Positions 1-64,000 of a stretch of 64,000 bases of DNA are shown here, one piece after another (positions within the stretch are counted from its first letter, which is position 1; each line of letters opens with the position of its first letter). The position numbers were made by a program, and so were the translations under genes. The notes below the pieces were generated by a model, which saw only the letters and a program-made list of their open reading frames with translations, did not search any database and was not told the DNA's origin. Location of the stretch: NCBI GenBank assembly GCA_965215125.1, contig OZ244052.1, positions 352,001 through 416,000 of the forward strand, given 5' to 3'. This stretch comes from an uncultured candidatus Porisulfidus sp. Lineage in GTDB: Bacteria; Pseudomonadota; Gammaproteobacteria; Poriferisulfidales; Oxydemutatoraceae.

Positions 1-3000
1 TCTCTTCATAAAACCAACCAAACCACCTACCGATTGTTTCCCTTTAACGAGTACATCGATTAAACCAATTTTTCTAATTTCGGAACTTGTTCCTCCGACA
101 ACACCGAACAGACCGATAGTGTCGCTATTCGCTTTATCTATCATTAAATTGGTAACCGTAAAACCGTTGCCGTCAAAAACCCCGCCTAAGCATGTACTGC
201 TCGCATCGGTACAATCGTTATTAACGATGTTTCCTATAGGTTGCCAACCTGTACCGGTCGTCCACACCGCCTTATTGGATGTTGAGACATAGCTTGCTTC
301 GTCTAGAAAATCTAAATCCTTGACTAATTCATAGCCCAGGCATCGGTTGTCGGGACAACCTGTAGCAATCTTGCTCGCCGTAGAACTCGCACGATAACCG
401 CTACCGTCCGGTTGATAACGAACCGCATTGAGGTCCTCGAGGGTCTCAATTTCTATTAAACCGTCATTATCTTTGTCTTTGTGCGTTGCGATGTCCGCGT
501 ACAACGGTGCATCGTAATGAATGTTTGTCTCATAGCCCTGTACGTCGGTATAGCTTATAGAAAATCTATATTGTGCGTTGCGGGCATCTTCCGGCGGCGT
601 ATAGCTTTTTTGGTTCGCACCGGGGATCGTAATAAATCTACCGTTCTGTTCCCGCAACCATAGATAGCCGACATCGGTCAACAGCCCTCCGTCTATATCG
701 TTTGACAAATCTTCTGCGGAAAGCGTGTCGCTACTTATCCATTTCACGGCACTTGCGGAGTTCCCATTGTTAACCTTTCTTACCGATAGCGGTATCTCTT
801 TGCTTACGACAAACATCGGATTATTGCTTTCGATCAGTTCCAGTTTTAAGATGACCGTGCTATAGTTCTTGTCTCTTGCAACAAAATCGGTAGGCACCGT
901 AAACTCCACGGTAGATGTAGTCTGTATCCCCGACAGTAAAGGTTTCCCCGATGGTTGAGTCCACCGGTAATCCAATCTCCGATTATTCTGTCCCAGACTC
1001 GTTGAAGCATCCAAGCGCAAGACATCCCCTTCGTCTAAAACAAAAATATTCCTTGTGATGAGTTCGGTAGGAGTACTCCCGTTTACTATTTTGAGAATAC
1101 GGGGCTGAAGGAGGTACTTTAAGCGTACCTGTATTTGATAGCTTGCGCCCCTATTACTCCCGCTCAAAGTCTCAACCTTGAGTTTGAACGAATGATTTGC
1201 ATCAATCTGCACGGTGCCGTCAGATTGTCCGGCCAAAGGTGCGCCGTCGTCTTTACGAATTGTTATTACGGTACCTTCGTCGGCACCAGCAGCAATTTTT
1301 ATAATCACCGGTGCCACCTCAACCTCAATCACCGCTTCGTAGTTAAATCTACTCGACTTAAAGCTCGGGGTCAGCTGCACAGCTCTTGAATTGGCAGATA
1401 AGCTCAGTCGATCCAATAAAAGTGCATCGGCAATCTGACCGGACAATAAAGCATTACAACTCGGCAACGCCGTTCCGGGATCGGTATCGCAACCCGGGTC
1501 GGCCGCATCCAATCCGACGCCGTATTTGAGTGCCGGATATTGCTCTGCATTACCGAAGTGCCAATCGGTAGTACTCCAATTCGTATAAGTTCTGCAATTG
1601 CGAATAATACCACTATCTTCTACACATGCCGCATAATTAAAATCCGGCGTTGTAGCGGATTGAAGCCCAAAACTCAACCTTGCACCGGGATGCACCGAAG
1701 TGGGAGCGAAGCTCTTATAACAAAACACTACGGGTATCCTATTATTATCCGAATCGAATATTAAACCATCAGTACAATTCATGCTAAAATTCCAATAACT
1801 ATTGACCGGGTTTGCAATAGAGGTGTCGCCGGCAGGTAATATTCCGGCAACCAAGCCATTGAGTGTGCCGTCACCCGAAACCTCACCTAGAGTATAACTA
1901 TTTTCAATCGTTGAATTATTATTGACACCGACTAAACCACCGGCAACTTTGTTGTTTGAGTTTACGCAGGTGCCGAACCCGGTCTCTGCATTGCCGGTCG
2001 CATAGCTGTTTTTGATTTCGCTCCTTTTCGCTAACTGATTTGAGTTGGTGGAAAACTGATTGCCCACCAAACCACCGACGATGCAAGGTCCTTTTACTTC
2101 ACCGGTCGCATAGCTGTTATATACCTTGCCACCGTCTATGTTCCTACCGACCAAACCGCCCACTCCGACCCGCTTGTTTCCCGTTATTTCGGAATCTTCG
2201 GCAACCACATTGATCTTTGCATAACTATTGAGTATAAAACCTTTATTCCAGCCGACCATCCCGCCTATAAATCCTATACCGTTGCCGAAGCCGACATCAC
2301 CTGTTATTATTTTATCGGTGTTTCCCGCTTCGATATCGCCGACCACATAGCTATTCATGATGACACCGCCGCGTTCCATTCTGCCGGCAATGCCACCTAC
2401 ATTTTTGATCCCGACCAGACCTTTGATCGCCGGATCTACAAGTCTAAAGTTTTTAACCCTTCCGACTGCTCCTATTTGGGAAAACAAACCTATATTGCTT
2501 ATATTGCCGACGCTACGGTTTATTTGCATATTGGATATCGTATAGCCATTGCCGTTAAACACGGCATTAAATGCTCCACCGATAGGCTGCCAACCCAAAT
2601 CGCTTGCATCCCTAAAATCGCTCACCGTCCAACTATTTTTGAGTACCGACGGATTCGGTGTACGATAGCTTGCATCGTCGGTAAAATCTAAATCGTTCAT
2701 CAACTCATAGCCTCGGCATTTTTCTACACCATTTACCAACGGACAACCTGTGGTGATCTTATCCGCACTTTCAGTTGCTTTGTAGCCGCTGCCGTCCGGC
2801 TGATAACGTATCGCATCCAAATCTTCCAAATAACGAATCTCTATCAGACCGTCGCCGTCGTCGTCTATGTCCGAATAGTTTATGACCTCGGATTCAAATT
2901 GCCCGCGATAACCTTGATTGTCTTCATACATAACGAGTACACGATATTGATAATCTCCTTCGTTTGGAAGGGTATAAGTAAGCGTTGCCGTAGACTCTAG

Positions 3001-6000
3001 GTTTATCCAACCCTCCGCCTCGCTACGACGACGCTGCCATTGTATACGGGTTTCGGCAAAGCCACCGTCGCGGTCTATAAACTCGCTACCGTCCATCCTT
3101 TGAAATATAATTCTATAAGTCATTGGTTTATCGCTAACTCTACGCAAGCTAATACGATCGGCAGTGTCGTTGTTTTGCTTGGAAATTATCAATGATATCG
3201 CTCTGCTCATATACACATCGTCCACACCGATTTCCGCCGTCAACTGTACGACACGGCTATCGTCTTGCTTAGACACTACATCGCTAGGTACCGTAAAATC
3301 CAATACGGCACTTTGTGTGTCAACCGGCGATCGCTTATCGTCAAACTTCAGCACATCGCCTGCCGATTGCTGCCATTTGTAGCGATATAAATCTTCATCC
3401 AAAGTAAAATTATACGAAATCATTAGGCGAACACGCTCGCCTTCGGCTACCGACAACGATAGTGGCACCATTGTCGTTGTTGTTGCCGTCACTCGTTCAA
3501 TTTTTAGTTCATCATAACGTACTGAGAAGTGATACGACAATTCGCCGGCATCGGGGTTATGCGTGGTTATAGTAATTTCCGGTGTATGGTTACCGTCCAG
3601 CACGAACGATATCGGAATACCCGACGAACATATCAAACCCTTGCGACAAGCAATATCTATAGTCGTGCCTACCCGTGTCGATGTGGTATCCAATCGTACT
3701 TCGGTTATTCGGGCAGACTCGGCTATGAGCTCGTAGTCAAAAATGAGCGGATGAAAAGACGGGAATAATCGGACATTGTTCGATAGGGTCAAACTTTGCA
3801 ACAGACTTTTCCCTTCGGGAGCAAGTAGCGGCACATCGGCAATCGCTTTCAACTCGGGATAACGATTCGCATCTGCGAACTCCCAAACATCGGCATCCCA
3901 GTTTTTATAAATACTATTTATCGGAGAAGTCGGCGTAGACGATCGGAGTACTGCCGTGGTCGCAGAAGTGCCGCCGGCACTCGATGCGATACCGCTCACC
4001 TCTATATCCCAATAACTATCGTCAACTACCGCATCGTTGACGGCAACCAAGCCACCTACTGTAGATATCTCTCCGATGCCTATCGTTCTGCTTACTGCGT
4101 AGCTATTGATGATTTCGCTGGAACCTTGATTGATAGCAACCAAACCACCGATAGTTCCCCAACCGATTACCGACCCCACCGCATAGCTATTCTCAATACG
4201 ACTGCGATTGTCGTTTAGGGCAACCAAACCACCTGCCAATGACGTTGGCAATCTAGCCGATAGATTGCCTTTCACCTGGGTTTCTGCATAAGATCGAGTA
4301 ATGGAACCGGCAAAATTCCTGCCGACCAATCCCCCTACGATTGCCGATCCACCGCTACCTCTTGCCATCACAGAACCACTAACATAACTCCGGCGAATGT
4401 CGCCCGCTCGGTTAGTGCCGACCAGACTACCGACATGCGCACCTCCGACTATATCTACACCCGTCAAACCGATACCTTCTATTACGACATCGCTTTTGCT
4501 GCCGTCTAGCACACCGAACAGTCCGATATAGTCGCTATCCGGTCTATTCACCGTTAAATTAGAAATCGTATAGCCGTTGCCTTTGAATATTGCCGTGAAC
4601 GGATGTAGCGAGGTGCCTATCGGCTGCCAGCCTGACCCGGTAGTCCAGGCGGTGTTCACGCTCCCCGCTCGGTAATGTGCCGGATTATCAAAGTCCAAAT
4701 CTCGCAACAGCTCATAGCCTTTGCAGCCGGTCATCGGACAACCTTTGGCACTTTCTATCAATACACCATCGGCGTTTTGATATCTCAGATGTCTACCGTC
4801 CAACGCATTGCGTATCGCATCCAAATCTTCCAGTGTTAGAATATCTATCAACCCATCTTTATCGGTATCCACATCCTCTTCAAAACCGGAAGAGAAATAA
4901 TCGACTTCAAAGCGATATCGGATGCGTCGCGCCCCCGAGACTTCAACACTAATCACAGTCGTATCGGTCGAACGCAACACAATTGCCGAACTGGTAGTGC
5001 CGGTTTTGATCGTCTCGTCAAAACCATTATCACTAACGATGCGAATGGTTGCATCCTCATCCAATGCATTCGGTGTCAAATGTAACTGCTTTATGTTTAC
5101 ATCCAACTCTACGCCGAGACGATAATACAATTTAGTCGTATCGAAGTTCGGAGATAGCGTCACAATCTCTGCAATCGTTAAACTTGTCAAACCATAAGAC
5201 TGTAAACCGGCGAGCGTGCTTTCGGTGCTGGTGGTATATTTAAGAATTGGATAACGATTTACATCGCCGAAATGCCAATCGCTATCGTCCCACCGGTAAT
5301 ACGCCCTACCGGCATCCGACGATTGACCGGTGCCCGATTGTAGTTGTACGGTAGTCTTGCCGACACCGCCGGCAGATTCATGTAGGTTGCTCGTAGCGAT
5401 ATCCCAATAGCTATTTACCGCAATACCCCCGACATTGCTACCGATTAGCCCCCCTGTGGCAACCGTATACGAGGTGCATGCAGGCACACCCGTGCATACA
5501 ATATCCGCCGTCGCATAACTGTCGCCAACCGAACCACTGTTCTCACCGATCAAACCACCGATAAGTGCGACTCCTTCGACACCACCGCTTGCATAAGTGT
5601 TTGCAATAGAACCGAGGTTCAAGGCGACCAAACCGCCGATGCCGGTGTCGCCCGATACACGACTCAAGCTGTAGCTGTTTGTAATCACCCCGGTACTTTC
5701 GTTGCGGGCGATCAAACCACCGACCGAGGATCCACCCGATACCGCACCGTAAGCATAACTATTAGAAATACGACCGACATTGTAGGCAACCAAACCTCCG
5801 ACGGCATTTTCTCCGACCACCGTAGCATCGGCAGAGCTGTTGTCTATAATCCCGGCATTATAGGTAGCTAGACTTCCGACACCGAAGCGACCCCCGACCT
5901 CTACATCCGTCAAATTAACATTTTTGACTTGCGCACCGTCGGCTAATGCCGCAAATAGACCGACATTGTCGGTATTGCTCCTATCGATACGTAGATTTGA

Positions 6001-9000
6001 AATGGTATGATTGTTGCCGTCAAATATCGCCGCGAAGCATCGGCTTTGCGTATCGTTGCAATCAAGCGTCGTAGCGTCGATCGCCCCGATCGGATGCCAG
6101 TCAAAACCGGAAAGGTCTATGCTCGCCGCAAGTTCGTAGCCTTTGCAACCGACGGTCGGAGTAGTCGGACACCCCAAGGTGATTTTGGTGTCGTCGCGAC
6201 TCGCTTTATAACCGCTACCGTCCAGTTGATAACGAATCGCATTCAAAGCGTCCGCACTGCGAACCTCTATCAAACCGTCGTCGTCTTCGTCTATATCGTT
6301 GACGGTAATAAAAGAGTGTTTGTTTACCCTAATACTATAAAGCGTCGTTTGCGTAGTTCTAGATACTAAGGGATCCTCCACTGCCAACGTCAGCAAAAGA
6401 TCATTGATATTGTCTATCGTAAGCGTAGTGACTTCACCGCTTCGTAATTCCATACGCGGGTTCGTTTCGCTATCGTTGTTGAGCGTAAGCACCGAACCCG
6501 AATTAAATGTATACGGAATGATGCTGAACTCACGCGCATCGCTTTTTAATATCAACTCGTAATCGTATATCTTGGAATTAAAGTCGGGTCTTAATAGTAA
6601 AACCTGACCGGTTCGATTTGAGTGCGCTAAATTGCTCAAACCGGTGCGACGTTGCGCCGGCAACAAGGTTCCACACATCGGCAGTTCGGTATCGGCATTT
6701 TCGGCTTCTAGGCACGCCGGGCGAGTGATTATATCGGTAGCACTGGTATATCTTAATACCGGATATTGACCGGACTCGGAATACCAATCGTTGCTATCCC
6801 AGTTGCTATAGATCCCATCTCCGATCGCAGCTGTTCGAAGCTCTGTTGTCGTCTTGCCGATACCGGTAACATCATCCTCGTCGTCTGCCACCCCGCTCGT
6901 AACAACATCCCAATAACTCGCATCGGCACTGCCAAGCGAAGTTCGACCCAATAATCCACCGATAAGCCTTCTGCTCGTCACCTTGCCGATCGCATAGCTA
7001 TTACTCACCACGATCCCCGATTGTGATAGCTCACCTACCAAGCCACCGACAAAGTCACTTCCGATAACCGCACCGCTCGCATAACTATTGTGAATATCCC
7101 TAGTCGAAATACCGACTAAACCACCTACAAAGTCATTCCCGACAACCGCACCGCTTGCATAACTATTATGAATTTTTCCACCTATTGCATTAGAACCGAC
7201 TAAACCGCCGGTAATGGCAAAGCGTCCATTTACCGAAACATCTGCATAGCTATTGACGATCGTGCCACCGTCATTCCTACCGACCAAACCTCCTACATAG
7301 AGATGGCCTTGAACATCACCGCCGATCACATAGCTGTTGACGATTTCACCTAAATTAAGACCTACCAAAGTACCGATACTATAGAGATCATGCCGGCTCA
7401 TATCAATATCCACATTGAGTAGACCGATATGCTCAATTCTCGCACCGCTCGCCAGCACACCGAATAAACCGATATCGCCGATAGGTATACCCTGAATCCT
7501 CAAGTTTGATATCGTATGTGCATTTCCGTTGAATAAACCGCTAAAAGGATTGCGACGGTTTCCTATCGGTTGCCAACCCGCACCGGTCGTCCATATCGGG
7601 TTGATCACACCCGCACGATAACTCGTAGGATTCTTAAAATCTAAATCTCTAGCCAATTTATAACCCTTACACCGCCTCGCACCGTCCTCGGTGTCTATAG
7701 GGCAATCCTTCAAGGTGGCGGATACCTGCGCCAAAGCGTAACGCATCAGGTTCAAGTCCTCTAGATAATCAATCGTTATGAAGTCATCGACTACTGCGAT
7801 ATCTTGCAATACCTTAATCGTATAGAATGTCGGCATGCCTTGTGTTGCGGATTGAACCCTAAGCACAATACTATCTAAATCGTCGCTTAGAGTAAACAAT
7901 GAACTTTGCCCGCTACGCTTTGATGAACTCAAGCTACCTGCGTCTACGGTGATCGTATCGGTGCCGTAATAAGCGGTCGGTGTGATACGAACCTCGTCGC
8001 CCGAACCAACGACTAAATGATAGTCGTATATCTCAAGATTAAATGCCGGAAGCAAGCGTGCATTTTTTGAAAGCTCCATTTGAACCAACCCGGCACGTTG
8101 TTCGGGTAGCAAGGCTCCGCAATACGGTTGTTGTTTCGGCAATCTCGGTAAATGACTAAGACAAACAATCGTCTTGTCATGCTCCGACAGGTCTGCAAAC
8201 AATCCACCATTACAATCCGATAATTGCTGCGGCAACGGTTGTCTGCATGCCGTATTGTCGTCATCGCCTGTTGCATAAAGCAACGCCGGATATTGATCTA
8301 CATTACCGAAGTGCCAATCGGCTCTATTCCACCCGGTATAAATATCATCCGACGGCATACCCGACTTCAGTGCTACCGCAGTTTTATCGGTGCCGATCAG
8401 TGAATCGATTCCAGAGATAACTGCACCTGCTCTATAATAACTATTAACAATTGTATGTCCGAGGACGGTTGCCGCAACTAAACCTCCGGTAATTCCATTA
8501 CTTGCCTGCACATCACCGATTGCATAGCTATTGTGAATTCTTGCATGATTATTACCGGCCAAACCGCCTGCACGCCCATTATTTGCCCGCACACCACCGA
8601 CTGCATAGCTATTAACAATAGAACCACCTATTTCATTCCAACCGACCAAACCGCCGGCGCGATCATTATCCACTTGTACGTCAACACGCGCATAGCTATT
8701 AACGATCATGCCGTCATTATTTCTACCGACCAAACCACCACCGTCGTTAACCTCGGCTAAGAGCTTACCCTCTGCATAGCTATTGATAATCGTGCCGAAG
8801 TTATAGCCGGCGATGCTACCGACATTACTCTGTCCGGCGATACTCACATTCACCAGACCGACATTCTCAACCCTGCCACCGGCTCCGATCGCTCCGAATA
8901 AACCTACCTCATTGGTACTGCCCGCCTTTATGGTCAAATTGGATATCGTGTAGCCGTTGCCTTTGAATACACCGCTAAAAGGTTCACTCAAACTACCTAT

Positions 9001-16026: not shown

Positions 16027-16035
16027 ACTACGCTT

Positions 16036-16126: not shown

Positions 16127-16138
16127 TATCAAACTGTT

Positions 16139-52221: not shown

Positions 52222-52241
52222 GTTCTAAATATTAGACTTTA

Positions 52242-52250
52242 ATTATAGCA
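52242..52250 (-). promoter_or_regulatory. Extended -10 sigma70-type promoter for gene C (TGCTATAAT)
   Basis: Reverse complement of attatagca, in an AT-rich gap otherwise unrelated to the A/B upstream regions, ~165 nt upstream of the ATG. Confidence 0.55.
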
Positions 52251-52306
52251 CATTTACATGGAATTTTCTGAAAATTTAATGCCTTTAATTCTGCAATATC
52301 GTGGAT

Positions 52307-52335
52307 AATTTACCTGCCGGACAATCAGGTAAATT
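52307..52335 (-). terminator. Perfect 10-bp inverted repeat after gene D (terminator, stability hairpin or operator)
   Basis: AATTTACCTG-ccggacaat-CAGGTAAATT, ~46 nt after the stop. Lacks a classic U-tract. Confidence 0.4.
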
Positions 52336-52381
52336 CTTATTTAATCGAAGAATTAATCGCCGGATAAAGGAGGGAAATAGG

Positions 52382-55300
52382 CTAGCGTAAAAGGCCTTCG
52401 GGAAATACTCTGATGTTTACGAAAATATCCGTTGACCGAACCACTGAAGTTCTTAAAACACCCCTAGATCTCACGACATTATATATGAATTGCTGCGGTG
52501 CCGACATCGCCGGAGATGCTAATCCTCGATGCCTATAACCCTGCTTATCGGTATAATCAATCAATACACGATAGCGATCACCTATAATGCCTTCTACGGT
52601 ATGGCTTTGATCGGTGGCACCATCAATATCCAACCAGCTACCCAGCAGTTCCTTTTGCCATCGATAAGCGATCTCGGGGGTAGGATTTGTTCCATCCGAA
52701 TCCGACGATAGATCTATGCCTGCTATGGTATACCTAAAACCATTCAGCGTAGGCGCAGGAACCGATATAACACCGTTATTCTTTTTGATCATGGCGAATT
52801 GTGCCGTTTCACCGGCAACGCCTAAGCCATCGTCAACCGTCAAAACGATATCCACAACATCTGTGTTTTGCATTTCATCAAGCAAGTCGTTTGGTATGCC
52901 ATGCTCATACCTTAAATCGGCACGACCTACTACCGTGCCGGTGCTTCTTTCTATATCCGATAATAGGTTCGGAATCATACTTAGACTATAACTCAACTCG
53001 TCCCCTTCGGGATCTGCTATAGCGGCATTTAATGCAAAGGTTTCACCCTCTACGATTGAAGCAGGTGCGTTAATACTTATCCTCGGCAAACGATTATTAT
53101 TTATCGTCAATTTATAGACAACGGGGGCTTCCATTCCCGCCGCATTACTCGTCGCAACACGAATAACCGTAGAGGTAGGCTCGGAAGTATTGAGCAAGAC
53201 AGAATAACCGGTATCGTTTGTCGGCAGGACATTGCCGTCGGCTATGATACTCGCATCGGGATTAGCGGCTATCGGGGTGACTCTTAGTTCGCTCGCATCG
53301 GCATGAACCGACACCGTATAAGTCGTAACCGCAGGATCAAAGTCGGGGGAGAGATACAAATGCCCTGCGCCTACATTTTGTTCCAACTTTAGAGATCGCA
53401 AACCGATACGTTGATGGAGTAACAATCTACCGCAATCCGGCGACGGCGTTGAAGTGCCACAGGTGTTATCGCGGTATTTGAGTACCGGATACTCATCGGC
53501 GGTGCCGAAATCCCAATCATCGCTATCCCAAGTGTAATAAATATCGTTTACCATCGTCCCCGGTGCAGTCGGCATTTGCAATTCAGTCTTAGCGGTGCCG
53601 CCTCCCGGAGAGTTCGTCTGCCCACTTGCATCGGTATCCCAATAGCTATTAGCCACGATTAGTCCGGGTGATTGTCTTATGCCGATTAAACCGCCTACAT
53701 ACTGTGCATCGGTGTTGGCTGTTGCAACAAAGGTTGTTTTTACCTCGGCAGCCGAGTAGCTGTTGCTGACACTGCCACCTGCCCATAAGGTACCGACTAG
53801 ACCTCCGACAGCTTGCTTTTTATCACTAATGCTAACCGAACCTGCCGCATAGCCGTTGCTAATAGCACCTTGATTCTCGCCGACCAGACCGCCCGCATCC
53901 CGCTCTGCCGAAACATCGGCAACCGCATAGCTTTTGCTAATCATACCAAAGTTTACGCCACAGATGCCACCTACAAAACGAGAACCTCCGACAGTGCCAC
54001 GCGCATAGCTATTTATAATCGACGCACCCGACACGCTTACGCCGGTTAACAGACCGATAATATTATTTTGTCCTACGACACTGCCTCCATCGACATAGGC
54101 ATTTATTAGTTCACCCTCGTTGCGACCGACTAGACCACCGACCCTAGCATTACCTCTTATTTCTATTGCCGATAATCCGAGATTGCGAATGGTGCCGGTA
54201 TTTCCGGCAAACAGACCTATTTCATCGGTGGTGTCTCTATTGATCCGTAAATTGGTGATCCTATATCCGTTGCCGTCAAAAATACCGGCGAAACAGTCGC
54301 TATCCGCATCGCTACAGTCATTGTTAGTAACAGTGCCTATGGGTTGCCAACCTGCAGCGGTCGTCCAAGCCACTTTATTGGCGGTTGAACTATAGCTTGC
54401 ATCGTCTAGAAAATCCAAATCCCTAACCAATTCATAGCCTCTGCATCGGCCGTCGGGACAACCTGTAGCAATCTTGCTCGCCGTAGAACTCGCACGATAG
54501 CCGCTGCCGTCCGGTTGATAACGAACCGCATTGAGATCCTCGAGGGTTTCAATTTCTATTAAGCCGTCGTTGTCTTTGTCTTTATGCGTAGCGATGTCTG
54601 CATACGGCGGGGCATCGTGATGAATGTTCGTCCGGTAACCCTGTCCATCGGTATAGCTTATAGAAAGTCTATATTGTGCGTTGCGAGCATCTTCGGGAGG
54701 CGTATAGCTTTTTCGGGTCGCACCGGGGATCGCAATAAATTTACCGTTCTGTTCCAGCAACCATCGATAGCCGATATCGGTCAACGGCCCTCCGTCTATA
54801 TCATCCGACAAATTGCTCGCTGAAAGCGTATCGCTACTTATCCATTTCACGGTACTTGTGGAATTTCCATTATTTGCCTTTCTCACCGATATTGGTATCT
54901 CTCTTACGGAAGATTCCGGATTATTGATTTCGTTAAATTCCCATCTTAGGGTCACCATGCTATCGTCCTCGTCCCTTGCGACAAAATCGACAGGTACCGT
55001 AAACTCTCGGGTAGCCATCGTCTCTGACAGCGGCTTCCCCGATACCCAACTCGATCGAAATGCAAATAGTCGACCGATTAGCCCATCCCAGGCGATATCA
55101 AAGCGCACAACATCCCCTTCGTCTAAGAAAAGAATACTTTGTTTAGGTATATCGGTAAGGGGAGTACCGTTTATTGTTTTGCGAATATTCGGCAGAATCG
55201 GGTACTTTAAGCGCACCTGTACTTGATAGTTCGCTTTTCTATTATTCCCGAGCGTGGTCTCAATTTTAAGTCTGAACGACTTATTCGCACTAATTTGCAC

Positions 55301-58300
55301 GGTGCCGTCCGATTGTTTGGTCAGAGGTGCGCCGCCGTCTTTACGAATCGTTATCGCGGTACCTTCGTCGGCATCGGTAGCGATATTTATAATCAACGGC
55401 AATTCTTCGGTTTCAATGATTGCTTCGTAGTTAAACCTACTCGACTTAAAGCTCGGGGTCAGCCGCACAGCTCTTGAATTGGCAGATAAGCTCAGCCGAT
55501 CCAATAAAAGCGCATCGGCAATCTGACCGGACAATAAAGCATTACAACTCGGCAACGCCGTTCCGGGATCGGTGTCGCAACCCGGGTCGGCCGCATCCAA
55601 TCCGACGCCGTATTTGAGTGCCGGATATTGCTCTGCATTACCGAAGTGCCAATCGGTAGTACTCCAATTCGTATAAGTTCTGCAATTGCGAATAATACCA
55701 CTATCTTCTATACATGCCGCATAATTAAAATCCGGCGTTGTAGCGGATTGAAGCCCAAAACTCAACCTTGCACCGGGATGCACCGAAGTGGGAGCGAAGC
55801 TCTTATAACAAAACACTACGGGTATCCTATTATTATCCGAGTCGAATATTAAACCCTCATTACAATTCATGCTAAAATTCCAATAACTATTGACCGGCTT
55901 TGCAATAGAACCGTTGCCGACGGGAAACCTGCCGGCAACCAAGCCATTGAGTGTGCCGTCACCCGAAACCTCACCTAGGGTATAACTATTTTCAATCGCT
56001 GAGTTATTATTAAAACCGACTAAACCACCGGCAACTCTGTCGTTTGAGTTTACGCAGGTGCCGAACCCGGTCTCTACATTGCCGGTTGCATAACTGTTTT
56101 TGATTTCGCTCCTTTTCGGTAGCTCGTCTGAGTTGGTAGAAAACTGATTGCCTACCAAACCCCCGACGATGCAAGGTCCTTTCACTTCACCGGTCGCATA
56201 GCTGTTATATACCTTGCCTCCGTCTATGTTCCTACCGACCAAACCGCCCACTCCGACCCGCTTGTTTGCTAGTGTTCCGGAATCTTCGGCAGTCACATTG
56301 ATCCTCGCATAACTATTGAGTATAAAACCTTTATTCCAGCCGACCATCCCGCCTATGAATCCTATACCGTTGCCGAAGCCGACATCACCTGTTATTATTT
56401 TATCGGTGTTTCCTGCTCCGACATCGCCGACCACATAGCTATTCATGATGACACCGCCGCGTTCTATTCTGCCGGCAATACCACCTACATTTTTGATCCC
56501 AGCTAAACCTTTGATTGTCGGATCTACCAATCCCAAGTTCTTAACCCTTCCACCTGAACCAATATTAGAAAATAGACCTATATTGCTTTGATAGCCGACG
56601 CTACGATTTATTTGCATATTGGATATCGTATAACCGTTGCCGTTAAATACGGCATTAAACCCACTTATAGGCTGCCAACCCGAATCGCTTGCATCCCTAA
56701 AATCACTCACCGTCCAACTATTTTTGAGTAGCGACGGACTCGGTGTACGATAGCTTGCATCGTCGGTAAAATCTAAATCGTTCATCAGTTCGTAACCCTT
56801 GCAGCCACCAGAGGCACAACCCGTTGTGTTGGTCGTAGACATTGCATCGGCTTTATAACCCGAACCATCCAAAACATAGCGTATCGCGTCCAAATCTTCC
56901 AAATAACGAATCTCTATCAAACCGTCGTTATCGTCGTCTATGTCTAAATAGTCTATAACTCTGGATGCCAGTTGTTCACGATAACCTTGATTGTCTTCGT
57001 AAGTAGCAAGTACACGATATTGATAAGCACCTTCGTTGGGAATAGTATACGTAGACTCGCTCCCGACATTGATCCAATCTTCTGCATCGCTACGACGACG
57101 TTGCCATTGTATATGAGTTTCGGCAAGGCCACCGTCGCGGTCTACAAAATCGCTACCGTCTTCTCTTTCAAGTCGAACGGCATAAGTATAGGGTTTATCG
57201 TTATCTTCAATTAAGCGAATACGATCGGCAATATCGTTGTTCGCTTTGGAAACTATCAATGATATCGCTCTGCTCATATACACATCGCCCACACCGATTT
57301 CCGCCGTCAACTGTACGACATGGCTATCGTCTTGCTTAGACACTACATCGCCGGGTACCGTAAAATCCAATACGGCACTTTGTGTGTCAACCGACGATAG
57401 CCTGTCGTTGAACTTCAGCACATCGCCTGCCGATTGCTGCCATTTGTAGCGATATAAATCTTCATCCAAAGTAAAATTATACGAAATCATTAGGCGAACA
57501 CGCTCGCCTTCGGCTACCGACAGCGATAGTGGCACGATTGTCGTTGTTGTTGCCGTCACTCGTTCAATTTTTAGTTCGTCATAACGTACTGAGAAGTGAT
57601 AAGACAATTCGCCGGCATCGGGGTTATGCGTGGTTATAGTAATTTCCGGTGTATGGCTACCGTCCAATACAAACGATGTAGGAATACCCGACGAACATAT
57701 CAAACCATTGCGACAAGCAATATCTATAGTCGTGCCTACCCGTGTCGATGTGGTATCGACTCGTACTTCGGTCATTCGGGCAGACTCGGCTATGAGCTCG
57801 TAGTCAAAAATGAGCGGATGAAAAGACGGGAATAGTCGGACATTGTTCGATAGGGTCAAACTCTGCAACAGACTTTTCCCTTCGGGAACAAGCAACGGCA
57901 CATCGGCAATCGCTTTCAGCTCGGGATAGCGACTCGCATCTGCGAACTCCCAAACATCGGCATCCCAGTTTTTATAAATACTATTAATCGGAGAAGTCGG
58001 CGTAGACGATCGGAGTATTGCCGTGGTCGCAGAAGAGCCGCCGGCACTCGATGCGATACCGCTCGCCTCTATATCCCAATAACTATCGTCAACTACCGCA
58101 TCGTTGACGGCAACCAAACCACCTACTTTAGACCTCGCACCGACGGCTATAACCCTATTCACCGCATAGCTGTTGATGATTTCGCTCGAGTCTCGGTTGA
58201 TAGCAACCAAACCACCGACGGTGTCCTGACCGATTATAGACCCTATCGCATAGCTATTCTCAATGCGACTGCGATTGTCGTTTAAGGCAACCAGACCACC

Positions 58301-61300
58301 TGCCAGTGCCACCGATAATCTAGCCGCTAGATTAGCCTTCACTTGGGTTTCCGAGTATGACTCGGTAATCAAACCGGCAACATTCCTGCCGACCAAGCCG
58401 CCTACCATTGCCGATGTGCCGTTACCTCTCGCTGCTACATAACCACTCGCATAACTCCGGCTAATATCGCCCGCTCGGTTATAGCCGACCAGACCACCAA
58501 CATGCGCACCTCCGACTATATCTACACCCGTCAAACCAATACCTTCTATTACGACATCGCTTTTGCTGCCGTCTAGCACACCGAACAGTCCGATATAGTC
58601 GCTATCCGGGCTATTCACTCTCAAATTAGAAATCGTATAGCCGTTGCCTTTGAATATTGACGTGAACGGATGTAGCGAGGTGCCTATCGGCTGCCAGCCT
58701 GACCCGGTAGTCCAGGCGGTGTTCACGCTCCCCGCTCGGTAATGTGCCGGATTATCAAAGTCTAAATCTTGCAATAACTCATAGCCTTTGCAACCGGTCA
58801 TCGGACAACCTTTGGCACTTTCTATCAATACACCATCGGCGTTTTGATGCCTAAGACTTCTGCCGTCCAACGCATTGCGTATCGCATCCAAATCTTCCAG
58901 TGTTAGAATATCTATCAACCCATCTTTATCGGTATCGACATCCTCTTCAAAACCGGAAGAGAAATAATCGACTTCAAAGCGATATCGGATGCGCCGATCC
59001 CCCGAAACTTCAACACTAATCACGGTCGTATCGGTCGAATGCAACGCAATTGCCGAACTGCCGGTGCCGGTTTTGACCGTCTCGTCAAAACCATTATCAC
59101 TAACGATGCGAATGGTTGCATCCTCATCCAGTGCATTCGGTGTCAAATGTAACTGCTTTATGTTTGCATCCAATTCTACGCCGAGGCGATAATGCAATTT
59201 AGTCGTACTGAAGTTCGGAGATAAGGTCACAACTTCTGCGATCGTTAAACTTGCCAAACCATAAGACTGTAAGCCGGCGAGCGTGCTTTCGGTGTTGGTG
59301 GTATATTTAAGAATCGGATAGTGATATACATCGCCGAAATGCCAATCGTTATCGCGCCACCGGTAATACACTCCGCCTGCATCCGACGATTGACCGGTGC
59401 CCGATTGCAGTTGCAGGGCAGTCTTGCCGATACCGGCGGCGGATATTCGTATGTTGCTCACACCGGTATCCCAATAGCTATTTGCTACATGACCACCGAC
59501 ATTACGACCGATTAGCCCGCCCGTGGCAACCGTATACGAGCTACACGCAGGCACACCGGTGCATACGATATCCGCCATCGCATAACTGTTGCGAACCGAA
59601 CCACCGTTGTCACCGACCAAACCGCCTATAAGTGTAACTCCTTCAACAACACCGCTTGCATAAGTGTTTGCAATAGAACCGAGGTTCAAGGCGACCAAAC
59701 CACCTATACTATCGTTGCCCGATACACGGTTCAAGCTGTAGCTGTTTGTAATCACCCCGGCGTTTTCGTTGCGAGCGACCAAACCACCGACCATACGACC
59801 GCCCGATACCGCACCGTAAGCATAACTATTGGAAATCCGACCGACATTATAAGCAACCAATCCTCCGACATCACGTTCTCCGACCACCGTAGCATCGGCA
59901 GAGCTGTTGTCTATAATCCCAGCATTATAGGCGGTCAGACTTCCGACACCGAAGCGACCCCCGACCTCTACATCCGCCAAGTTAACATTTCTGACTTGCG
60001 CAGCGTCGGCTAATGCCGCAAATAGACCGACATTGTCGGTAGCGGTTTTATCTATACGCAGATTTGAAATGGTATGATTGTTGCCGTCGAATATCGCCGC
60101 AAAGCATCGGCTTTGCGTACCGATACAATCAAGCGTCGTAGCGTCGATCGCCCCGATCGGATGCCAGTCAAAACCGGAAAGGTCTATGCTCGCCACAAGT
60201 TCGTAGCCTTTGCAACCGACGGTCGGGGTGGTCGGACACCCCAAGGCGATTTTGGTATCGTCGCGACTCGCTTTATAACCGCTACCGTCCAGTTGATAAC
60301 GAATCGCATTTAGGTCCTCCGCACTGCGAACTTCTATCAAACCGTCGTCGTCTTCGTCTATATCGTTGACGGTAATAAGGGAATGTCTGATGACCCCAAA
60401 ATGATAGGTCGTTGTTTGCGTGGTCATAGATGTCAGAGGTTCATCTACTACCAATGTCAACAAGGAATTGTTGAGATTGTCTATTATTACACTATGAGCT
60501 CTACCGCTTTGCAATTTTTTGGTTCCGTTTTTATCGCTGATCACGATCATCGCTTGCGAGTTAAATGAATGCGGAATAATACTAAATTCACGCGCATCGC
60601 TTTTTACTATCAACTCGTAATCGTATATCCCGGAATTAAAGTCGGGTCTTAGCAGAAAAACCTGACCGATTCGATTTGAGTGCGCTAGATTGCTTAAGCC
60701 AATACCCTGATTTAGCAACAAAGTTCCACACATCGGCAATTCGGTATCGGCATCTTCGGTTGTTCGGCACGCCGGGCGAGTGATTATATCGGTAGCACTG
60801 GTATACCTTAATACCGGATATTGACCGGACTCGGAATACCAATCGTTGCTATCCCAGTTGCTATAGATCCCATCTCCGATCGCAGCTGTTCGAAGCTCTG
60901 TTGTCGTCTTGCCGATACCGGTAACATCATCCCCGTCGTCTGCCACCCCGCTCGTAACAACATCCCAATAACTCGCATCGGCACTGCCAAGCGAAGCTCG
61001 ACCCAATAATCCACCGATAAGCCTTCTGCTCGTCACCTTGCCGATCGCATAGCTATTACTCACCACGATCCCCGATTGTGATAGCTCACCTACCAAGCCA
61101 CCGACAAAGTCACTTCCGATAACCGCACCGCTCGCATAACTATTGTGAATATCCCTAGTCGAAATACCGACTAAACCACCTACAAAGTCATTCCCGACAA
61201 CCGCACCGCTTGCATAACTATTATGAATTTTTCCACCTATTGCATTAGAACCGACTAAACCGCCGGTAATGGCAAAGCGTCCATTTACCGAAACATCTGC

Positions 61301-64000
61301 ATAGCTATTGACGATCGTGCCACCGTCATTCCTACCGACCAAACCTCCTACATAGAGATGGCCTTGAACATCACCGCCGATCACATAGCTGTTGACGATT
61401 TCACCTAAATTAAGACCTACCAAAGTACCGATACTATAGAGATCATGCCGGCTCATATCAATATCCACATTGAGTAGACCGATATGCTCAATTCTCGCAC
61501 CGTCCGCCACAACACCGAATAAACCGATATCGCCGACCGGCATACCCTGAATCCTCAAGTTTGATATCGTATGTGCATTTCCGTTGAATAAACCGCTAAA
61601 AGGATTGCGACGGTTTCCTATCGGTTGCCAACCCGCACCGGTCGTCCATATCGGGTTGATCACACCCGCACGATAACTCGTAGGATTCTTAAAATCTAAA
61701 TCTCTAGCCAATTTATAACCCTTACACCGCCTCGCACCGTCCTCGGTGTCTATAGGGCAATCCTTCAAGGTGGCGGATACCTGCGCCAAAGCGTAACGCA
61801 TCAGGTTCAAGTCGTCTAGATAATCAATCGTTATGAAGTCATCGACTACTGCGATATCTTGCAATACCTTAATCGTATAGAATGTCGGCATGCCTTGTGT
61901 TGCGGATTGAACCTTAAGCACAATACTATCTAAATCGTCGCTTAGAGTAAACAATGAACTTTGCCCGCTACGCTTTGATGAACTCAAGCCACCTGCATCT
62001 ACGGTGATCGTATCGGTGCCGTAATAAGCGGTCGGTGTGGTACGAACCTTATCGCCCGAACCAACGACTAAATGATAGTCGTATATCTCAAGATTAAATG
62101 CCGGAAGCAAGCGTGCATTTTTTGAAAGCTCCATTTGAACCAACCCGGCACGTTGTTCGGGTAGCAAGGCTCCGCAATACGGTTGTTGTTTCGGCAATCT
62201 CGGTAAATGACTACGACAAATAATCGTCTTGTCATGCTCCGACAAGCCTGCAGATAATCTGCCGTTGCACTCCGATAATTGCTGCGGCAACGGTTGTCTG
62301 CATGCCGTATTGTCGTCATCGCCTGTTGCATAAAGCAACGCCGGATATTGATCTGCATTACCGAAGTGCCAATCGGCTCTATCCCACCCGGTATAAATAT
62401 CATTCGACGGCACACCGGCTTCAAGTTCTATCATAGTTTTATCGGTGCCGATCAGTGAATCGGTCCCGGAGATAACCGCACCTTTTCTGTAATAGCTATC
62501 GACAACCGTATGTTCGGCTTTATAGGTTGCTACCAAACCTCCCGCACTTCCACTATTTGCCTGCACATCACCGATTGTATAGCTCATGTGAATTTTTGAA
62601 TGATTAATACCGACCAAACCGCCTACATTGCCTGCACGCCCATTACTTGCTTGCACATCACCGACTGCATAGCTATTAACAATAGAACCACCTATTTCAT
62701 TCCAACCGACCAAACCGCCGGCGCGATTATTATCCACTTGTACGTCAACATGCGCATAGCTGTTGACGATTGTGCCGTGTCTTTTTCTACCCACCAAACC
62801 GCCACCGTCGTTGACCTTGGCTAAGAGCTTACCCTCTGCATAGCTATTGATAATCGTACCAAAGCTGTAACCGGCGATGGTGCCGACATTACTCTGTCCG
62901 GTGATATTCACATTCATTAGACCGACATTCTCAACTCTGCCACCGGCTCCGATCGCTCCGAATAAACCTACCTCATTGGTACTGCCCGCCTTTATGGTCA
63001 AATTGGAAATCGTGTAGCCGTTGCCTTTGAATACACCGCTAAAAGGTTTATTAAAAGTACCTATGGGCCACCAAGAAATCCCGGCAAGGTCTATGTCGGC
63101 AGTCAATTCATACCCTCTGCACCCGTTAGCACAATAGATCGCATCGGCGGTCTCGCGTTCTTGATAAGCACTACCGTGCAGACGGTGACGGACGGCATTC
63201 AAATGTGTCGCATTGCTTATATCTATTAATCCATCACCGTCTTCGTCTATGTTTTGCGCGACGACGTCGAGTCGATTGACGACGAATTGATATCGGTACG
63301 AATGTCGTTTGCCGTCTTTTACGACCAAACTAAAAACCGTATCGACGAAGTCGTTCAACGGAATAGGCACCGTCCATTCACCGCTATCGGTTTCTCCTAT
63401 TGCGTTGCCATTCTTAACAACCTCAATCTTTGCTGCCCTATTAAACGCAGTCGGTAACATGCGAATAGTACTGCGATCGGCATTGACCGATATACCGTAA
63501 TCAAATGATGTGGAATTAAAAGAACCGGACAAACCTGCGCTTTCGGATAATTTTAGGTCTTGCAATAAACTCCCTTGATGACGAAGCAAAGTGTGGCACG
63601 CATCGGGACGTCTCTGAATATCCGCCACATCACAATATGCATCACCATCGGTAGAGTCGGCACGCAAATTATACTTGATCGCCGGGTATTGCTTAGCGGT
63701 GCCGAAATCCCAGTTATCGCTACCCCAGCTCGTATAGATACCGGTCGCACTCGTCGGTGATTGAAGTTCGGCGGTGCGCTTACCCTCTCCCAAAGTCACA
63801 TTGGTTTCGGAAATATCTTCGTCTAAATAAATTGTGTAGACAGTCGGCGCAAGCCGATCTTGCGGATTCCTATTGCCACCGAATAAGCCTTGCGACACAC
63901 CGGCTTTGGTTGCCGAAACGCTCGCATAGCTGTTGCCGATATCAATGGCAGACGATGTGCGCACGCCGATTAAACCGCCTATAAACGCGTCATCGTGTTC
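52382..64000 (-). CDS. Gene D: giant GLUG-repeat / cadherin-like surface protein, 5'-truncated by window edge (from within module 4 to C-terminus)
   Basis: The track ORF begins at an internal GTG (63964), but the frame is open to 64000 (EHDDAFIGGLIGVR), matching gene A at ~9936. If collinear with A, the true start lies about 6 kb beyond the window. Ends STDIFVNIRVFPEGLLR*. Confidence 0.9.
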   Translation of the reverse strand, partial: EHDDAFIGGLIGVRTSSAIDIGNSYASVSATKAGVSQGLFGGNRNPQDRLAPTVYTIYLDEDISETNVTLGEGKRTAELQSPTSATGIYTSWGSDNWDFGTAKQYPAIKYNLRADSTDGDAYCDVADIQRRPDACHTLLRHQGSLLQDLKLSESAGLSGSFNSTSFDYGISVNADRSTIRMLPTAFNRAAKIEVVKNGNAIGETDSGEWTVPIPLNDFVDTVFSLVVKDGKRHSYRYQFVVNRLDVVAQNIDEDGDGLIDISNATHLNAVRHRLHGSAYQERETADAIYCANGCRGYELTADIDLAGISWWPIGTFNKPFSGVFKGNGYTISNLTIKAGSTNEVGLFGAIGAGGRVENVGLMNVNITGQSNVGTIAGYSFGTIINSYAEGKLLAKVNDGGGLVGRKRHGTIVNSYAHVDVQVDNNRAGGLVGWNEIGGSIVNSYAVGDVQASNGRAGNVGGLVGINHSKIHMSYTIGDVQANSGSAGGLVATYKAEHTVVDSYYRKGAVISGTDSLIGTDKTMIELEAGVPSNDIYTGWDRADWHFGNADQYPALLYATGDDDNTACRQPLPQQLSECNGRLSAGLSEHDKTIICRSHLPRLPKQQPYCGALLPEQRAGLVQMELSKNARLLPAFNLEIYDYHLVVGSGDKVRTTPTAYYGTDTITVDAGGLSSSKRSGQSSLFTLSDDLDSIVLKVQSATQGMPTFYTIKVLQDIAVVDDFITIDYLDDLNLMRYALAQVSATLKDCPIDTEDGARRCKGYKLARDLDFKNPTSYRAGVINPIWTTGAGWQPIGNRRNPFSGLFNGNAHTISNLRIQGMPVGDIGLFGVVADGARIEHIGLLNVDIDMSRHDLYSIGTLVGLNLGEIVNSYVIGGDVQGHLYVGGLVGRNDGGTIVNSYADVSVNGRFAITGGLVGSNAIGGKIHNSYASGAVVGNDFVGGLVGISTRDIHNSYASGAVIGSDFVGGLVGELSQSGIVVSNSYAIGKVTSRRLIGGLLGRASLGSADASYWDVVTSGVADDGDDVTGIGKTTTELRTAAIGDGIYSNWDSNDWYSESGQYPVLRYTSATDIITRPACRTTEDADTELPMCGTLLLNQGIGLSNLAHSNRIGQVFLLRPDFNSGIYDYELIVKSDAREFSIIPHSFNSQAMIVISDKNGTKKLQSGRAHSVIIDNLNNSLLTLVVDEPLTSMTTQTTTYHFGVIRHSLITVNDIDEDDDGLIEVRSAEDLNAIRYQLDGSGYKASRDDTKIALGCPTTPTVGCKGYELVASIDLSGFDWHPIGAIDATTLDCIGTQSRCFAAIFDGNNHTISNLRIDKTATDNVGLFAALADAAQVRNVNLADVEVGGRFGVGSLTAYNAGIIDNSSADATVVGERDVGGLVAYNVGRISNSYAYGAVSGGRMVGGLVARNENAGVITNSYSLNRVSGNDSIGGLVALNLGSIANTYASGVVEGVTLIGGLVGDNGGSVRNSYAMADIVCTGVPACSSYTVATGGLIGRNVGGHVANSYWDTGVSNIRISAAGIGKTALQLQSGTGQSSDAGGVYYRWRDNDWHFGDVYHYPILKYTTNTESTLAGLQSYGLASLTIAEVVTLSPNFSTTKLHYRLGVELDANIKQLHLTPNALDEDATIRIVSDNGFDETVKTGTGSSAIALHSTDTTVISVEVSGDRRIRYRFEVDYFSSGFEEDVDTDKDGLIDILTLEDLDAIRNALDGRSLRHQNADGVLIESAKGCPMTGCKGYELLQDLDFDNPAHYRAGSVNTAWTTGSGWQPIGTSLHPFTSIFKGNGYTISNLRVNSPDSDYIGLFGVLDGSKSDVVIEGIGLTGVDIVGGAHVGGLVGYNRAGDISRSYASGYVAARGNGTSAMVGGLVGRNVAGLITESYSETQVKANLAARLSVALAGGLVALNDNRSRIENSYAIGSIIGQDTVGGLVAINRDSSEIINSYAVNRVIAVGARSKVGGLVAVNDAVVDDSYWDIEASGIASSAGGSSATTAILRSSTPTSPINSIYKNWDADVWEFADASRYPELKAIADVPLLVPEGKSLLQSLTLSNNVRLFPSFHPLIFDYELIAESARMTEVRVDTTSTRVGTTIDIACRNGLICSSGIPTSFVLDGSHTPEITITTHNPDAGELSYHFSVRYDELKIERVTATTTTIVPLSLSVAEGERVRLMISYNFTLDEDLYRYKWQQSAGDVLKFNDRLSSVDTQSAVLDFTVPGDVVSKQDDSHVVQLTAEIGVGDVYMSRAISLIVSKANNDIADRIRLIEDNDKPYTYAVRLEREDGSDFVDRDGGLAETHIQWQRRRSDAEDWINVGSESTYTIPNEGAYQYRVLATYEDNQGYREQLASRVIDYLDIDDDNDGLIEIRYLEDLDAIRYVLDGSGYKADAMSTTNTTGCASGGCKGYELMNDLDFTDDASYRTPSPSLLKNSWTVSDFRDASDSGWQPISGFNAVFNGNGYTISNMQINRSVGYQSNIGLFSNIGSGGRVKNLGLVDPTIKGLAGIKNVGGIAGRIERGGVIMNSYVVGDVGAGNTDKIITGDVGFGNGIGFIGGMVGWNKGFILNSYARINVTAEDSGTLANKRVGVGGLVGRNIDGGKVYNSYATGEVKGPCIVGGLVGNQFSTNSDELPKRSEIKNSYATGNVETGFGTCVNSNDRVAGGLVGFNNNSAIENSYTLGEVSGDGTLNGLVAGRFPVGNGSIAKPVNSYWNFSMNCNEGLIFDSDNNRIPVVFCYKSFAPTSVHPGARLSFGLQSATTPDFNYAACIEDSGIIRNCRTYTNWSTTDWHFGNAEQYPALKYGVGLDAADPGCDTDPGTALPSCNALLSGQIADALLLDRLSLSANSRAVRLTPSFKSSRFNYEAIIETEELPLIINIATDADEGTAITIRKDGGAPLTKQSDGTVQISANKSFRLKIETTLGNNRKANYQVQVRLKYPILPNIRKTINGTPLTDIPKQSILFLDEGDVVRFDIAWDGLIGRLFAFRSSWVSGKPLSETMATREFTVPVDFVARDEDDSMVTLRWEFNEINNPESSVREIPISVRKANNGNSTSTVKWISSDTLSASNLSDDIDGGPLTDIGYRWLLEQNGKFIAIPGATRKSYTPPEDARNAQYRLSISYTDGQGYRTNIHHDAPPYADIATHKDKDNDGLIEIETLEDLNAVRYQPDGSGYRASSTASKIATGCPDGRCRGYELVRDLDFLDDASYSSTANKVAWTTAAGWQPIGTVTNNDCSDADSDCFAGIFDGNGYRITNLRINRDTTDEIGLFAGNTGTIRNLGLSAIEIRGNARVGGLVGRNEGELINAYVDGGSVVGQNNIIGLLTGVSVSGASIINSYARGTVGGSRFVGGICGVNFGMISKSYAVADVSAERDAGGLVGENQGAISNGYAAGSVSISDKKQAVGGLVGTLWAGGSVSNSYSAAEVKTTFVATANTDAQYVGGLIGIRQSPGLIVANSYWDTDASGQTNSPGGGTAKTELQMPTAPGTMVNDIYYTWDSDDWDFGTADEYPVLKYRDNTCGTSTPSPDCGRLLLHQRIGLRSLKLEQNVGAGHLYLSPDFDPAVTTYTVSVHADASELRVTPIAANPDASIIADGNVLPTNDTGYSVLLNTSEPTSTVIRVATSNAAGMEAPVVYKLTINNNRLPRISINAPASIVEGETFALNAAIADPEGDELSYSLSMIPNLLSDIERSTGTVVGRADLRYEHGIPNDLLDEMQNTDVVDIVLTVDDGLGVAGETAQFAMIKKNNGVISVPAPTLNGFRYTIAGIDLSSDSDGTNPTPEIAYRWQKELLGSWLDIDGATDQSHTVEGIIGDRYRVLIDYTDKQGYRHRGLASPAMSAPQQFIYNVVRSRGVLRTSVVRSTDIFVNIRVFPEGLLR

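Follow-up and report, generated by a model that had tools for sequence, protein, structure and literature searches.

A genus-conserved tandem family of giant GLUG/cadherin-like genes in candidatus Porisulfidus that probably evolves by segmental gene conversion

Gene-conversion antigenic variation is known from Neisseria pilE/pilS, Borrelia vlsE and Anaplasma msp2, which work with silent cassettes. The Neisseria opa genes and the vomp tandem array of Bartonella quintana are intact, separately promoted and recombining surface paralogs. Here we describe a tandem array of giant genes, named G1 to G5, in a genome of the sponge symbiont candidatus Porisulfidus, which is presented in part of PMC9123188 as a relative of the SUP05 sulfur oxidisers. 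The window is a stretch of 64,000 nucleotides (nt; G000:C1:352001-416000) from this complete single-contig genome (2,220,706 bp, 46% G+C), and its minus strand is filled by four giant open frames, two of them complete and two cut. The whole array consists of five head-to-tail paralogs (genome 350114-439636, 89.5 kb, about 4% of the genome) in the order G5-G4-G3-G2-G1 along transcription, with spacers of 136-299 nt from open frame to open frame. A preliminary description of the window had reported at least four tandem paralogs of about 18 kb and equal domain order; it counted four since the window cuts the array, and all five copies have the ten modules. With a probability of roughly 0.7, we take the array to represent a genus-conserved tandem family of giant GLUG/cadherin-like secreted fibres that evolves by segmental gene conversion.

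Like the cassette systems, the array undergoes non-reciprocal transfer of variable segments guided by conserved flanks; it differs from them in having neither a division into expression site and silent cassettes nor truncated copies. Yeast FLO adhesin genes are described in part of PMC3512402 as a recombining family of complete genes with chimaeric alleles. The array resembles families of intact genes of the opa, vomp and FLO type rather than cassette-based antigenic variation: all copies are complete, ectopic recombination leads to chimaeras, and conserved blocks flank variable ones. The array genes differ from these families in being 5-20 times longer, in their ten modules, in old sequence classes shared across species and in an apparently slow tempo, and no phase-variation repeats were found in them.

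Giant calcium-stiffened adhesins of the repeats-in-toxin (RTX) kind, among them LapA, MpIBP and FrhA, use type I secretion, as described in part of PMC7493085. The array proteins resemble them in being very long, presumably extracellular chains in which beta-sandwich or extender units follow each other in tandem, probably separated by calcium sites. They differ in a leader that looks Sec-type by inspection, in extenders that pair a helix with a sandwich, and in the absence of an RTX repeat family among the Pfam matches of the two G3 halves; the flanks of the array showed no type I secretion genes. They also differ from the type V beta-helix adhesins (autotransporter and two-partner secretion, TPS), as no Pfam family of a C-terminal beta-barrel translocator or an N-terminal TPS domain was matched in either half of G3 at an expectation value (E) of 0.01 or below, and the C-terminal 45 residues are modelled as disordered. 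In the literature searched we found no description of the array genes. The GLUG domain itself is hardly studied, and neither giant GLUG proteins nor the C-terminal tail motif reported below (searched as four motif strings) have been studied in that literature.

Mosaic structure of the five paralogs

The codon alignment of all five copies has 16,995 columns without gaps and contains 2,041 informative sites. Overall, any two copies are 83-87% identical in DNA, and in sliding windows the identity ranges from 48% to 100%. The closest paralog shifts along the gene: G1 and G2 are 98% identical at alignment nt 2701, G1 and G3 96% at 4501, G2 and G3 97% at 7501, and G1 and G4 99% at 8701. DNA of the module-1 helix shows 93-96% identity across all five copies, and the final 1.1 kb or so shows 93-98% among G2-G5 and about 79% to G1, so that the two gene ends are the most conserved parts. 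The near-identity of module 1 and of the gene end, and the interchangeable tracts between them, had been noticed in the preliminary description; the identity profiles and the cross-species windows below bear out this picture of two constant ends enclosing variable blocks.

A single tree for the whole alignment, which had been named there as the outcome that would speak against a mosaic, was not found. The pairwise homoplasy index (PHI) was 0.260, compared to 0.543 +/- 0.003 after permutation, and none of 1000 permutations gave a value as low. We further tested all 15 unrooted five-gene topologies in 40 windows of 900 nt by the approximately unbiased (AU) test. Each topology was the best one in some window and none was accepted in more than 18 of the 40; eight windows accepted one topology only, and among these eight there were five different topologies. 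In a GENECONV-style run test, a check likewise proposed earlier, the longest runs of matching polymorphic sites exceeded those of all 500 permutations in each of the 10 pairs. The pairwise tracts listed number 30, with lengths of 600-1,841 nt and identities of 95-98% versus 83-87% overall, and the longest exact run between any two copies is 553 nt (examples in Table 1). Donor cassettes were not found elsewhere in the genome, the best outside match of 298 tiles being 78.6% over 290 nt. Since no outside sequence exceeds this value, exchange is internal to the array. Segmental recombination among the intact paralogs is therefore strongly supported.

Chimeric joins among 18-kb repeats during assembly could in principle create mosaic junctions. 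The locus is repetitive, and in public short-read data its contigs are fragmented to 290-1,122 nt, many of them matching without differences. We nevertheless regard an assembly artefact as the least probable of the explanations considered. The copies differ by 13-17% overall and share exact runs of at most 553 nt, so they are not collapsible repeats, and all frames are open over 17-18 kb. The architecture is shared by three other genomes, each the representative of its own species, tract classes recur in other species, and the full-length tract combinations D3/A7 and D2/A5 (labels of sister copies) recur in two separate genomes. When words were sampled from 10 kb of G2, five public runs belonging to two studies contained 70-80% of them. 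A 382-nt contig piece (window 33994-34375) spans the spacer between G3 and G2 and is identical in four runs from the two studies.

Gene ends and interior modules in sister species

The family is present in 10 of the 41 related genomes searched. Three congeners (genomes G001, G003 and G004, 'candidatus Porisulfidus') carry tandem genes of the same kind with about 5,500-6,000 codons, and the copy number across the four genomes is 5 to at least 7. A scan with a single protein for related loci returned two loci only, both in sister genomes. That every copy is intact, as stated in the preliminary description, holds for the five copies of this genome, each open over 17-18 kb, and for all 18 sister copies fetched. 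Between species, DNA identity is 90% for the flanking housekeeping genes and 86-87% for a pilus-like cluster upstream of the array.

Trees were calculated across species on a 23-gene codon alignment (5 copies from here and the 18 sister copies). In the module-1 tree this genome's five copies are a single clade (support 100), as are the five of G003 (support 100). In segments 3001-3600 and 7501-8100 the copies of this genome fall into separate classes shared by all four genomes; the second segment has three classes, each present also in all three other genomes. One clade of this genome's copies was rejected for both segments (p-AU 2.4e-5 and 1.2e-6, respectively). Over 32 windows of 600 nt, these copies are monophyletic in 8 (nt 1-3000, 3601-4200 and 12001-13200) and polyphyletic in 24.

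We also compared copies window by window. In 137 of 316 copy-by-window cells a copy has a partner in its own genome that is at least 93% identical and exceeds every foreign copy by 4 points or more, while 22 cells are nearer to a foreign copy and 157 are undecided. The median for foreign copies is 85.7%, versus 93% or more for these own-genome partners, and the 137 cells mark exchange after speciation. Clustering within the genome and incongruent trees along the gene, by which concerted evolution of multigene families is recognised, were both found. Judged from these sequence comparisons, module 1 evolves in concert within each species, and the interior classes, three or more in number, predate the split of the four species.

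The tempo of exchange can be estimated from G001 and G004, which are close relatives. Their orthologous copies are mostly 90-98% identical and pair along nearly the whole 18 kb (D3/A7, D2/A5, D5/A4, D1/A6), with an occasional switch on the kb scale; nt 3601-6000 of D1, for example, turned A7-like. As the copies are collinear with occasional switches, exchange is episodic and proceeds on an evolutionary timescale. In tempo, the analogy to antigenic variation drawn in the preliminary description is not supported. Programmed high-frequency variation of the pilE/pilS or vlsE type, acting within one infection or host, is in our view very improbable for this locus. What the array has in common with such systems is a general resemblance, namely mosaic paralogs that are probably surface proteins and conserved blocks that flank variable ones. 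However, each of the five copies is full-length with a start codon, a signal peptide and a conserved upstream region, and there are no truncated or promoterless cassettes. The tracts are 95-98% rather than 100% identical and exact runs do not exceed 553 nt, which argues that the exchanges are not very recent; the copies are collinear between the two related genomes, and no recombinase or invertase lies beside the array.

Selection was assessed as the ratio of nonsynonymous to synonymous substitution rates (dN/dS) per 150-codon window. In 41 of the 43 windows the ratio was 0.10-0.61, as would be expected if all copies are under purifying selection. The variable tracts have a high dS (0.5-0.9) and are therefore old rather than fast-evolving. 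Poor recombination between strongly diverged tracts may be enough to explain why they persist.

Taken together, the paralogs swap tracts of 0.6-1.8 kb by homologous, non-reciprocal recombination, that is, gene conversion. Module 1 in all copies and the last 1.3 kb or so in four of the five are kept alike within each species by concerted evolution, and the interior modules retain three or more old sequence classes from before the four-species split. Conversion moving these interior classes between copies makes each gene a different mosaic. Such exchange acts over evolutionary time and not as a programmed switch, as there are neither silent cassettes nor a single expression site. Gene conversion has two opposite outcomes within one gene, homogenised ends and an interior that keeps and re-assorts old classes, and this can be compared in four species. 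The locus also makes it possible to ask whether paralog diversity in symbiont surface proteins is selected or merely tolerated.

An adaptive combinatorial repertoire is a possible, less probable extension of this view. Selection would then keep alternative interior modules, and the homogenised ends would serve as recombination handles. Each bacterium or population could have differently assembled fibres, perhaps differentially expressed from three promoter classes, for binding varied host or matrix ligands or for avoiding host recognition. In agreement with this, the three classes at nt 7501-8100 persist in all four species despite active conversion on both sides, and whole divergent tracts have been copied, with G1 and G4 98-99% identical where other pairs show 62-75% (G3 and G5 about 92%). 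Upstream classes a, b and c (see below) are conserved across species and are not homogenised, though module 1 just downstream is, and the four genomes maintain 5 to at least 7 copies with all frames intact. On the other hand, signs of diversifying selection are lacking: dN/dS stays at 0.10-0.6 almost throughout, and the variable tracts are old. Neutral persistence of old classes could also account for the pattern, because strongly diverged DNA recombines poorly. Moreover, the conserved parts are the ends, the likely tip and anchor, and orthologous copies in the two close genomes are mostly unchanged.

A difference in arrangement was also observed among the sister genomes. In G001 (L009-L015) and G004 (L021-L026) the array is split into two part-arrays of opposite orientation, hundreds of kb apart, of which one adjoins the secretin cluster and the other adjoins pheST; there are at least 7 copies in G001 and at least 6 in G004. 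The split suggests that the arrays drive, or suffer, large chromosomal rearrangements.

Protein architecture and the C-terminal tail motif

Each protein is built of ten modules of 427-804 residues, in identical order in all five copies. Within a module, a DxDxDG stretch resembling a calcium loop comes first, followed by a GLUG right-handed beta-helix and then a cadherin-like beta-sandwich; extra immunoglobulin-like domains are found in four modules, and a catalytic domain is absent. This architecture had been read from the letters of the window, and it was recovered in Pfam matches, an AlphaFold model of one module and a structural match. Pfam was searched with the two halves of G3 (E <= 0.01). 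GLUG (PF07581) gave E 6e-51 and 1e-46 (167.8 and 154.3 bits, gathering cut-off 20.5) and covers roughly the first 300 residues of a module; Cadherin-like (PF12733) gave E 5e-13 and 1e-15 (49.8 and 58.3 bits, cut-off 24.2). The remaining Pfam and NCBIfam matches were below-cutoff or marginal echoes of IgA1-protease families only. Peptidase_M26_N was matched on GLUG-like stretches only, with 40.2 bits in one half of G3 and 20.8 in the other (cut-off 27.7), and the NCBIfam models ZmpA and ZmpC reached 17.7-30.7 bits versus a cut-off of 3000. As none of the five proteins has an HExxH motif and ZmpA and ZmpC lie far under their cut-off, an identity as M26 IgA1 metalloproteases was ruled out; from the streptococcal and Gemella enzymes of this family the array proteins differ in lacking both the catalytic domain and HExxH.

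We modelled module 5 of G3 with AlphaFold, using an input alignment of 21 modules. The mean predicted local distance difference test (pLDDT) score was 80.4 and exceeded 90 over most of residues 1-240. The model begins with a strand and a helix at the DxDxDG motif and continues as a right-handed beta-helix up to residue 305 or so; a cysteine-rich linker of low confidence and a beta-sandwich at 360-462 follow. The best Foldseek match was 3n6z, Bacteroides BACOVA_03286 (E 1.6e-9, template modelling (TM) score 0.67 over 342 columns), followed by the non-catalytic beta-helix domain of IgA1 proteases (7uvk, 6xjb, 6xja). The modelled helix superposes on these GLUG structures, and the array proteins differ from them in that ten helices in series alternate with cadherin-like sandwiches. 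In a phmmer search with the module among 1.84 billion metagenome representatives the family proved to be very common (51,523 matches at E <= 1e-3, 5,479 at E <= 1e-30).

Each array protein has 45-53 cysteines, most of which lie pairwise close together, and its DxDxDG motifs number 6-7. Acidic residues (D+E) outnumber basic ones (K+R) by about 165-220, and every copy has a hydrophobic N-terminal leader that ends in VSA-Q or AIA-Q. The products would accordingly be acidic, cysteine-paired proteins of about 5,900 residues with Sec-type signal peptides. From fold and composition, the product is probably an extracellular, calcium-stiffened fibre whose length when extended would be of the order of 100 nm. 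The most likely product appears to be a long fibre, either extracellular or attached to the surface, which could function in attachment of the symbiont or in shaping its surface.

All five array proteins end in ...NIRVFPEG(L/F)LR. More generally, the extreme C-terminal motif is ...IRxxVF[LP]EG[PL]L[QR] followed by the stop, typically ...IRIRxKVFLEGPLQ. It ends 26 of the 3,460 stop-to-stop open reading frames (ORFs) of at least 100 codons in this genome; chance alone would give about 1.25, and a single one of these 26 has the appearance of a chance case. The 26 ORFs amount to 127,992 residues or 17.3% of the genome, and some are devoid of GLUG motifs. Among the 150 best representatives of the global module search the core expression flagged 47, about 45 of which are convincing by eye. 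No Pfam or NCBIfam model matches the tail, even at E <= 10, and the last 330 residues gave a weak model (pLDDT 57.5) with the final 45 disordered. We consider the motif a candidate for a previously undescribed linear signal for export or anchoring. With about 4% of a small 2.2 Mb genome spent on the array and about 17% on tail-motif proteins, these proteins are probably central to life in the sponge, and the locus raises the questions of how a 600-kDa protein is exported across a Gram-negative envelope and how the symbiont holds on to its sponge host. A more far-reaching proposal is that some 25 Sec-exported proteins of very large size, together 17% of the genome, share this tail (...R-x-K/R-V-F-L-E-G-P-L-Q/R) as a C-terminal tag to one export or anchoring pathway. 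The array would then be a repertoire in which balancing selection across species keeps three or more ancient versions of every interior module, and their re-assortment would provide each symbiont lineage with calcium-stiffened fibres of about 100 nm of its own for the sponge host, the homogenised ends acting as recombination handles and as interface for export or anchoring; we regard this combination as doubtful.

Several points weigh against the reading as secreted fibres that evolve by gene conversion. The role as surface fibre or adhesin is derived from fold and composition, and the leader was judged by eye to be a putative Sec-type signal peptide. Conservation is highest at the two ends, whereas a repertoire with variable tips should show the opposite. 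The alignment is uncertain in the most divergent tract, the module-10 helix (48-60% identity), where the barely alignable sequence also gives an apparent dN/dS of 0.7-1.85 that is saturated and unreliable. At least one array copy each in G001, G003 and G004 was left out, so that the class counts there are a minimum. Finally, the long-range order of the mosaic is beyond the reach of contigs of only 290-1,122 nt.

Further observations concern GLUG proteins elsewhere in this genome. Three frames of 14,984, 15,128 and 11,639 codons (genome 132358-177312, 1910614-1956000 and 2109754-2144673) contain 77-98 GLUG-like motifs each and end in the tail motif described above, and the 23 ORFs with at least three GLUG-like motifs make up 16.2% of the genome. 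A second tandem run at genome 1633399-1664374 comprises four GLUG-bearing ORFs of 3,555, 3,119, 1,877 and 1,263 codons. The C-termini of three of these ORFs are nearly identical (...ERTVYS..R..SRSTE.RIR.RVFLEGP.Q), pointing to concerted evolution like that of the array.

Transcription units, feature positions and surroundings

The signal peptides and the upstream DNA of the array genes form three classes, a (G1, G2), b (G3, G4) and c (G5), which cluster across species rather than within them, each with a TGnTAnAAT-like element. ATATG(C/T)TATAAT is located about 90 nt ahead of the probable ATG of G1 and G2. The element TGnTAnAnT is aligned in 8 of 9 class-a copies over the four species, and classes b and c have elements related to it. 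A scan for the sigma-70 consensus returned no full promoter on the coding strand of three intergenic regions. The proposal that each copy has its own promoter thus stands in part: the conserved upstream classes, the shared element and one hairpin speak for it, the lack of a full sigma-70 promoter in the three spacers against it. Separate transcription units are partly supported, and read-through transcription would also be possible. Right after the probable class-a ATG (ATGGGGGGA) there is a run of six G residues (window 34006-34011 and 16023-16028, minus strand). As this run is not conserved among the sister species, it is probably no phase-variation tract.

The codon counts of the open frames are 5,981 (G1), 5,947 (G2), 5,918 (G3), 5,903 (G4) and 5,762 (G5). 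Positions of the features are given in Table 1.

Table 1. Features of the array and its upstream cluster (window positions unless a locus or genome is named)
Feature	Position	Strand	Remarks
G1, last gene of the array	1-16059	-	C-terminus cut; N-terminal 5,353 codons inside the window
G1, full gene	end 1.9 kb past the left edge of the window	-	5,981 codons
Recent exchange tract in G1	6668-8208	-	= G4 60723-62263, 98.0% over 1,604 alignment nt; holds the 553-nt exact run
G1, probable ATG	16026	-	placed by an ATG conserved in the cross-species upstream alignment
G2-G1 intergenic spacer	16060-16195	-	terminator-like hairpin and extended -10-like element
Terminator-like hairpin, G2-G1 spacer	16147-16166	-	then extended -10-like ATATGCTATAAT at 16118-16129
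G2, complete, ten modules	16196-34039	-	5,947 codons when counted from the first possible start; ATG probably at 34009
Tail of G2	16199-16240	-	
Constant C-terminal block in G2	16203-17485	-	= G4 52389-53665, 97.3%; ends ...NIRVFPEG(F/L)LR
Tract in G2	25965-27569	-	= G3 44210-45814, 96.8% over 1,644 alignment nt
Constant N-terminal block (module 1) in G2	32641-33937	-	= G3 50694-51990, 96.5%; homogenised within species
G3-G2 intergenic spacer	34040-34338	-	ATATGTTATAAT at 34099-34110
G3, complete	34339-52077	-	5,912 codons, ATG start
Tail of G3	34342-34380	-	
G3 modules 1-5	49597-51963, 48316-49596, 46837-48315, 45400-46836, 43987-45399	-	
G3 modules 6-10	42532-43986, 40948-42531, 38950-40947, 36538-38949, 34342-36537	-	
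G3 module 5, 471 aa	43987-45399	-	structure modelled
G4-G3 intergenic spacer	52078-52381	-	upstream class b
G4	52382-64000	-	N-terminus cut; C-terminal 3,872 of 5,903 codons inside the window
Type II secretion / type IV pilus-like cluster	L029:1494-9767 (genome 441093-449366)	-	just upstream of the array

Upstream of the array and on the same strand there are genes for a secretin, three unassigned ORFs, an E-type ATPase and an F protein of a type II secretion system (T2SS-E, T2SS-F), and three N-methyl pseudopilin-like genes, with gloB between these and the array. In all four closed genomes of the genus the secretin gene precedes the first array gene by 8-10 kb; in genome G002 a secretin homolog lies about 12 kb ahead of a giant GLUG gene. 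We considered the secretin/T2SS-E/T2SS-F/pseudopilin cluster as a dedicated exporter and rejected it, as its distribution does not track the GLUG family. Among the 41 relatives searched, secretin homologs occur in 25, including genera devoid of the GLUG family, compared to 10 with the GLUG family, and one genome that has the family gave no secretin homolog. With the secretin being far more widespread, a functional link is unsupported.

Downstream of the array follow two small ORFs, a phosphate porin gene and thrS-infC-rplT-pheST. The two ORFs 3' of G1 (144 and 267 aa, coiled-coil/repeat) were rejected as partners, since they belong to no informative family and have no consistent link to the giant genes. 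A look for recombinases in the flanks had been proposed in the preliminary description; in the flanks inspected no recombinase or invertase gene adjoins the array, and only transposases of insertion sequences (IS) and remnants of phage Mu were seen. These are an IS4-like DDE transposase, an IS110-family transposase and Mu-like gene remnants (portal fragment, protein F, virion morphogenesis) at L027:2627-4015 and L029:10216-13982.

Inspection of the flanks for more copies led to a sixth, more distant relative in addition to the five array genes. This gene, G0, is located 21 kb downstream of the array, beyond pheST (L030, genome 310035-328778), and has 6,247 codons and 11 modules. Compared with module 5 of G3, its modules show 35-41% identity, and it ends in a tail variant of its own, ...HIRVLLEGLLPVGTE.

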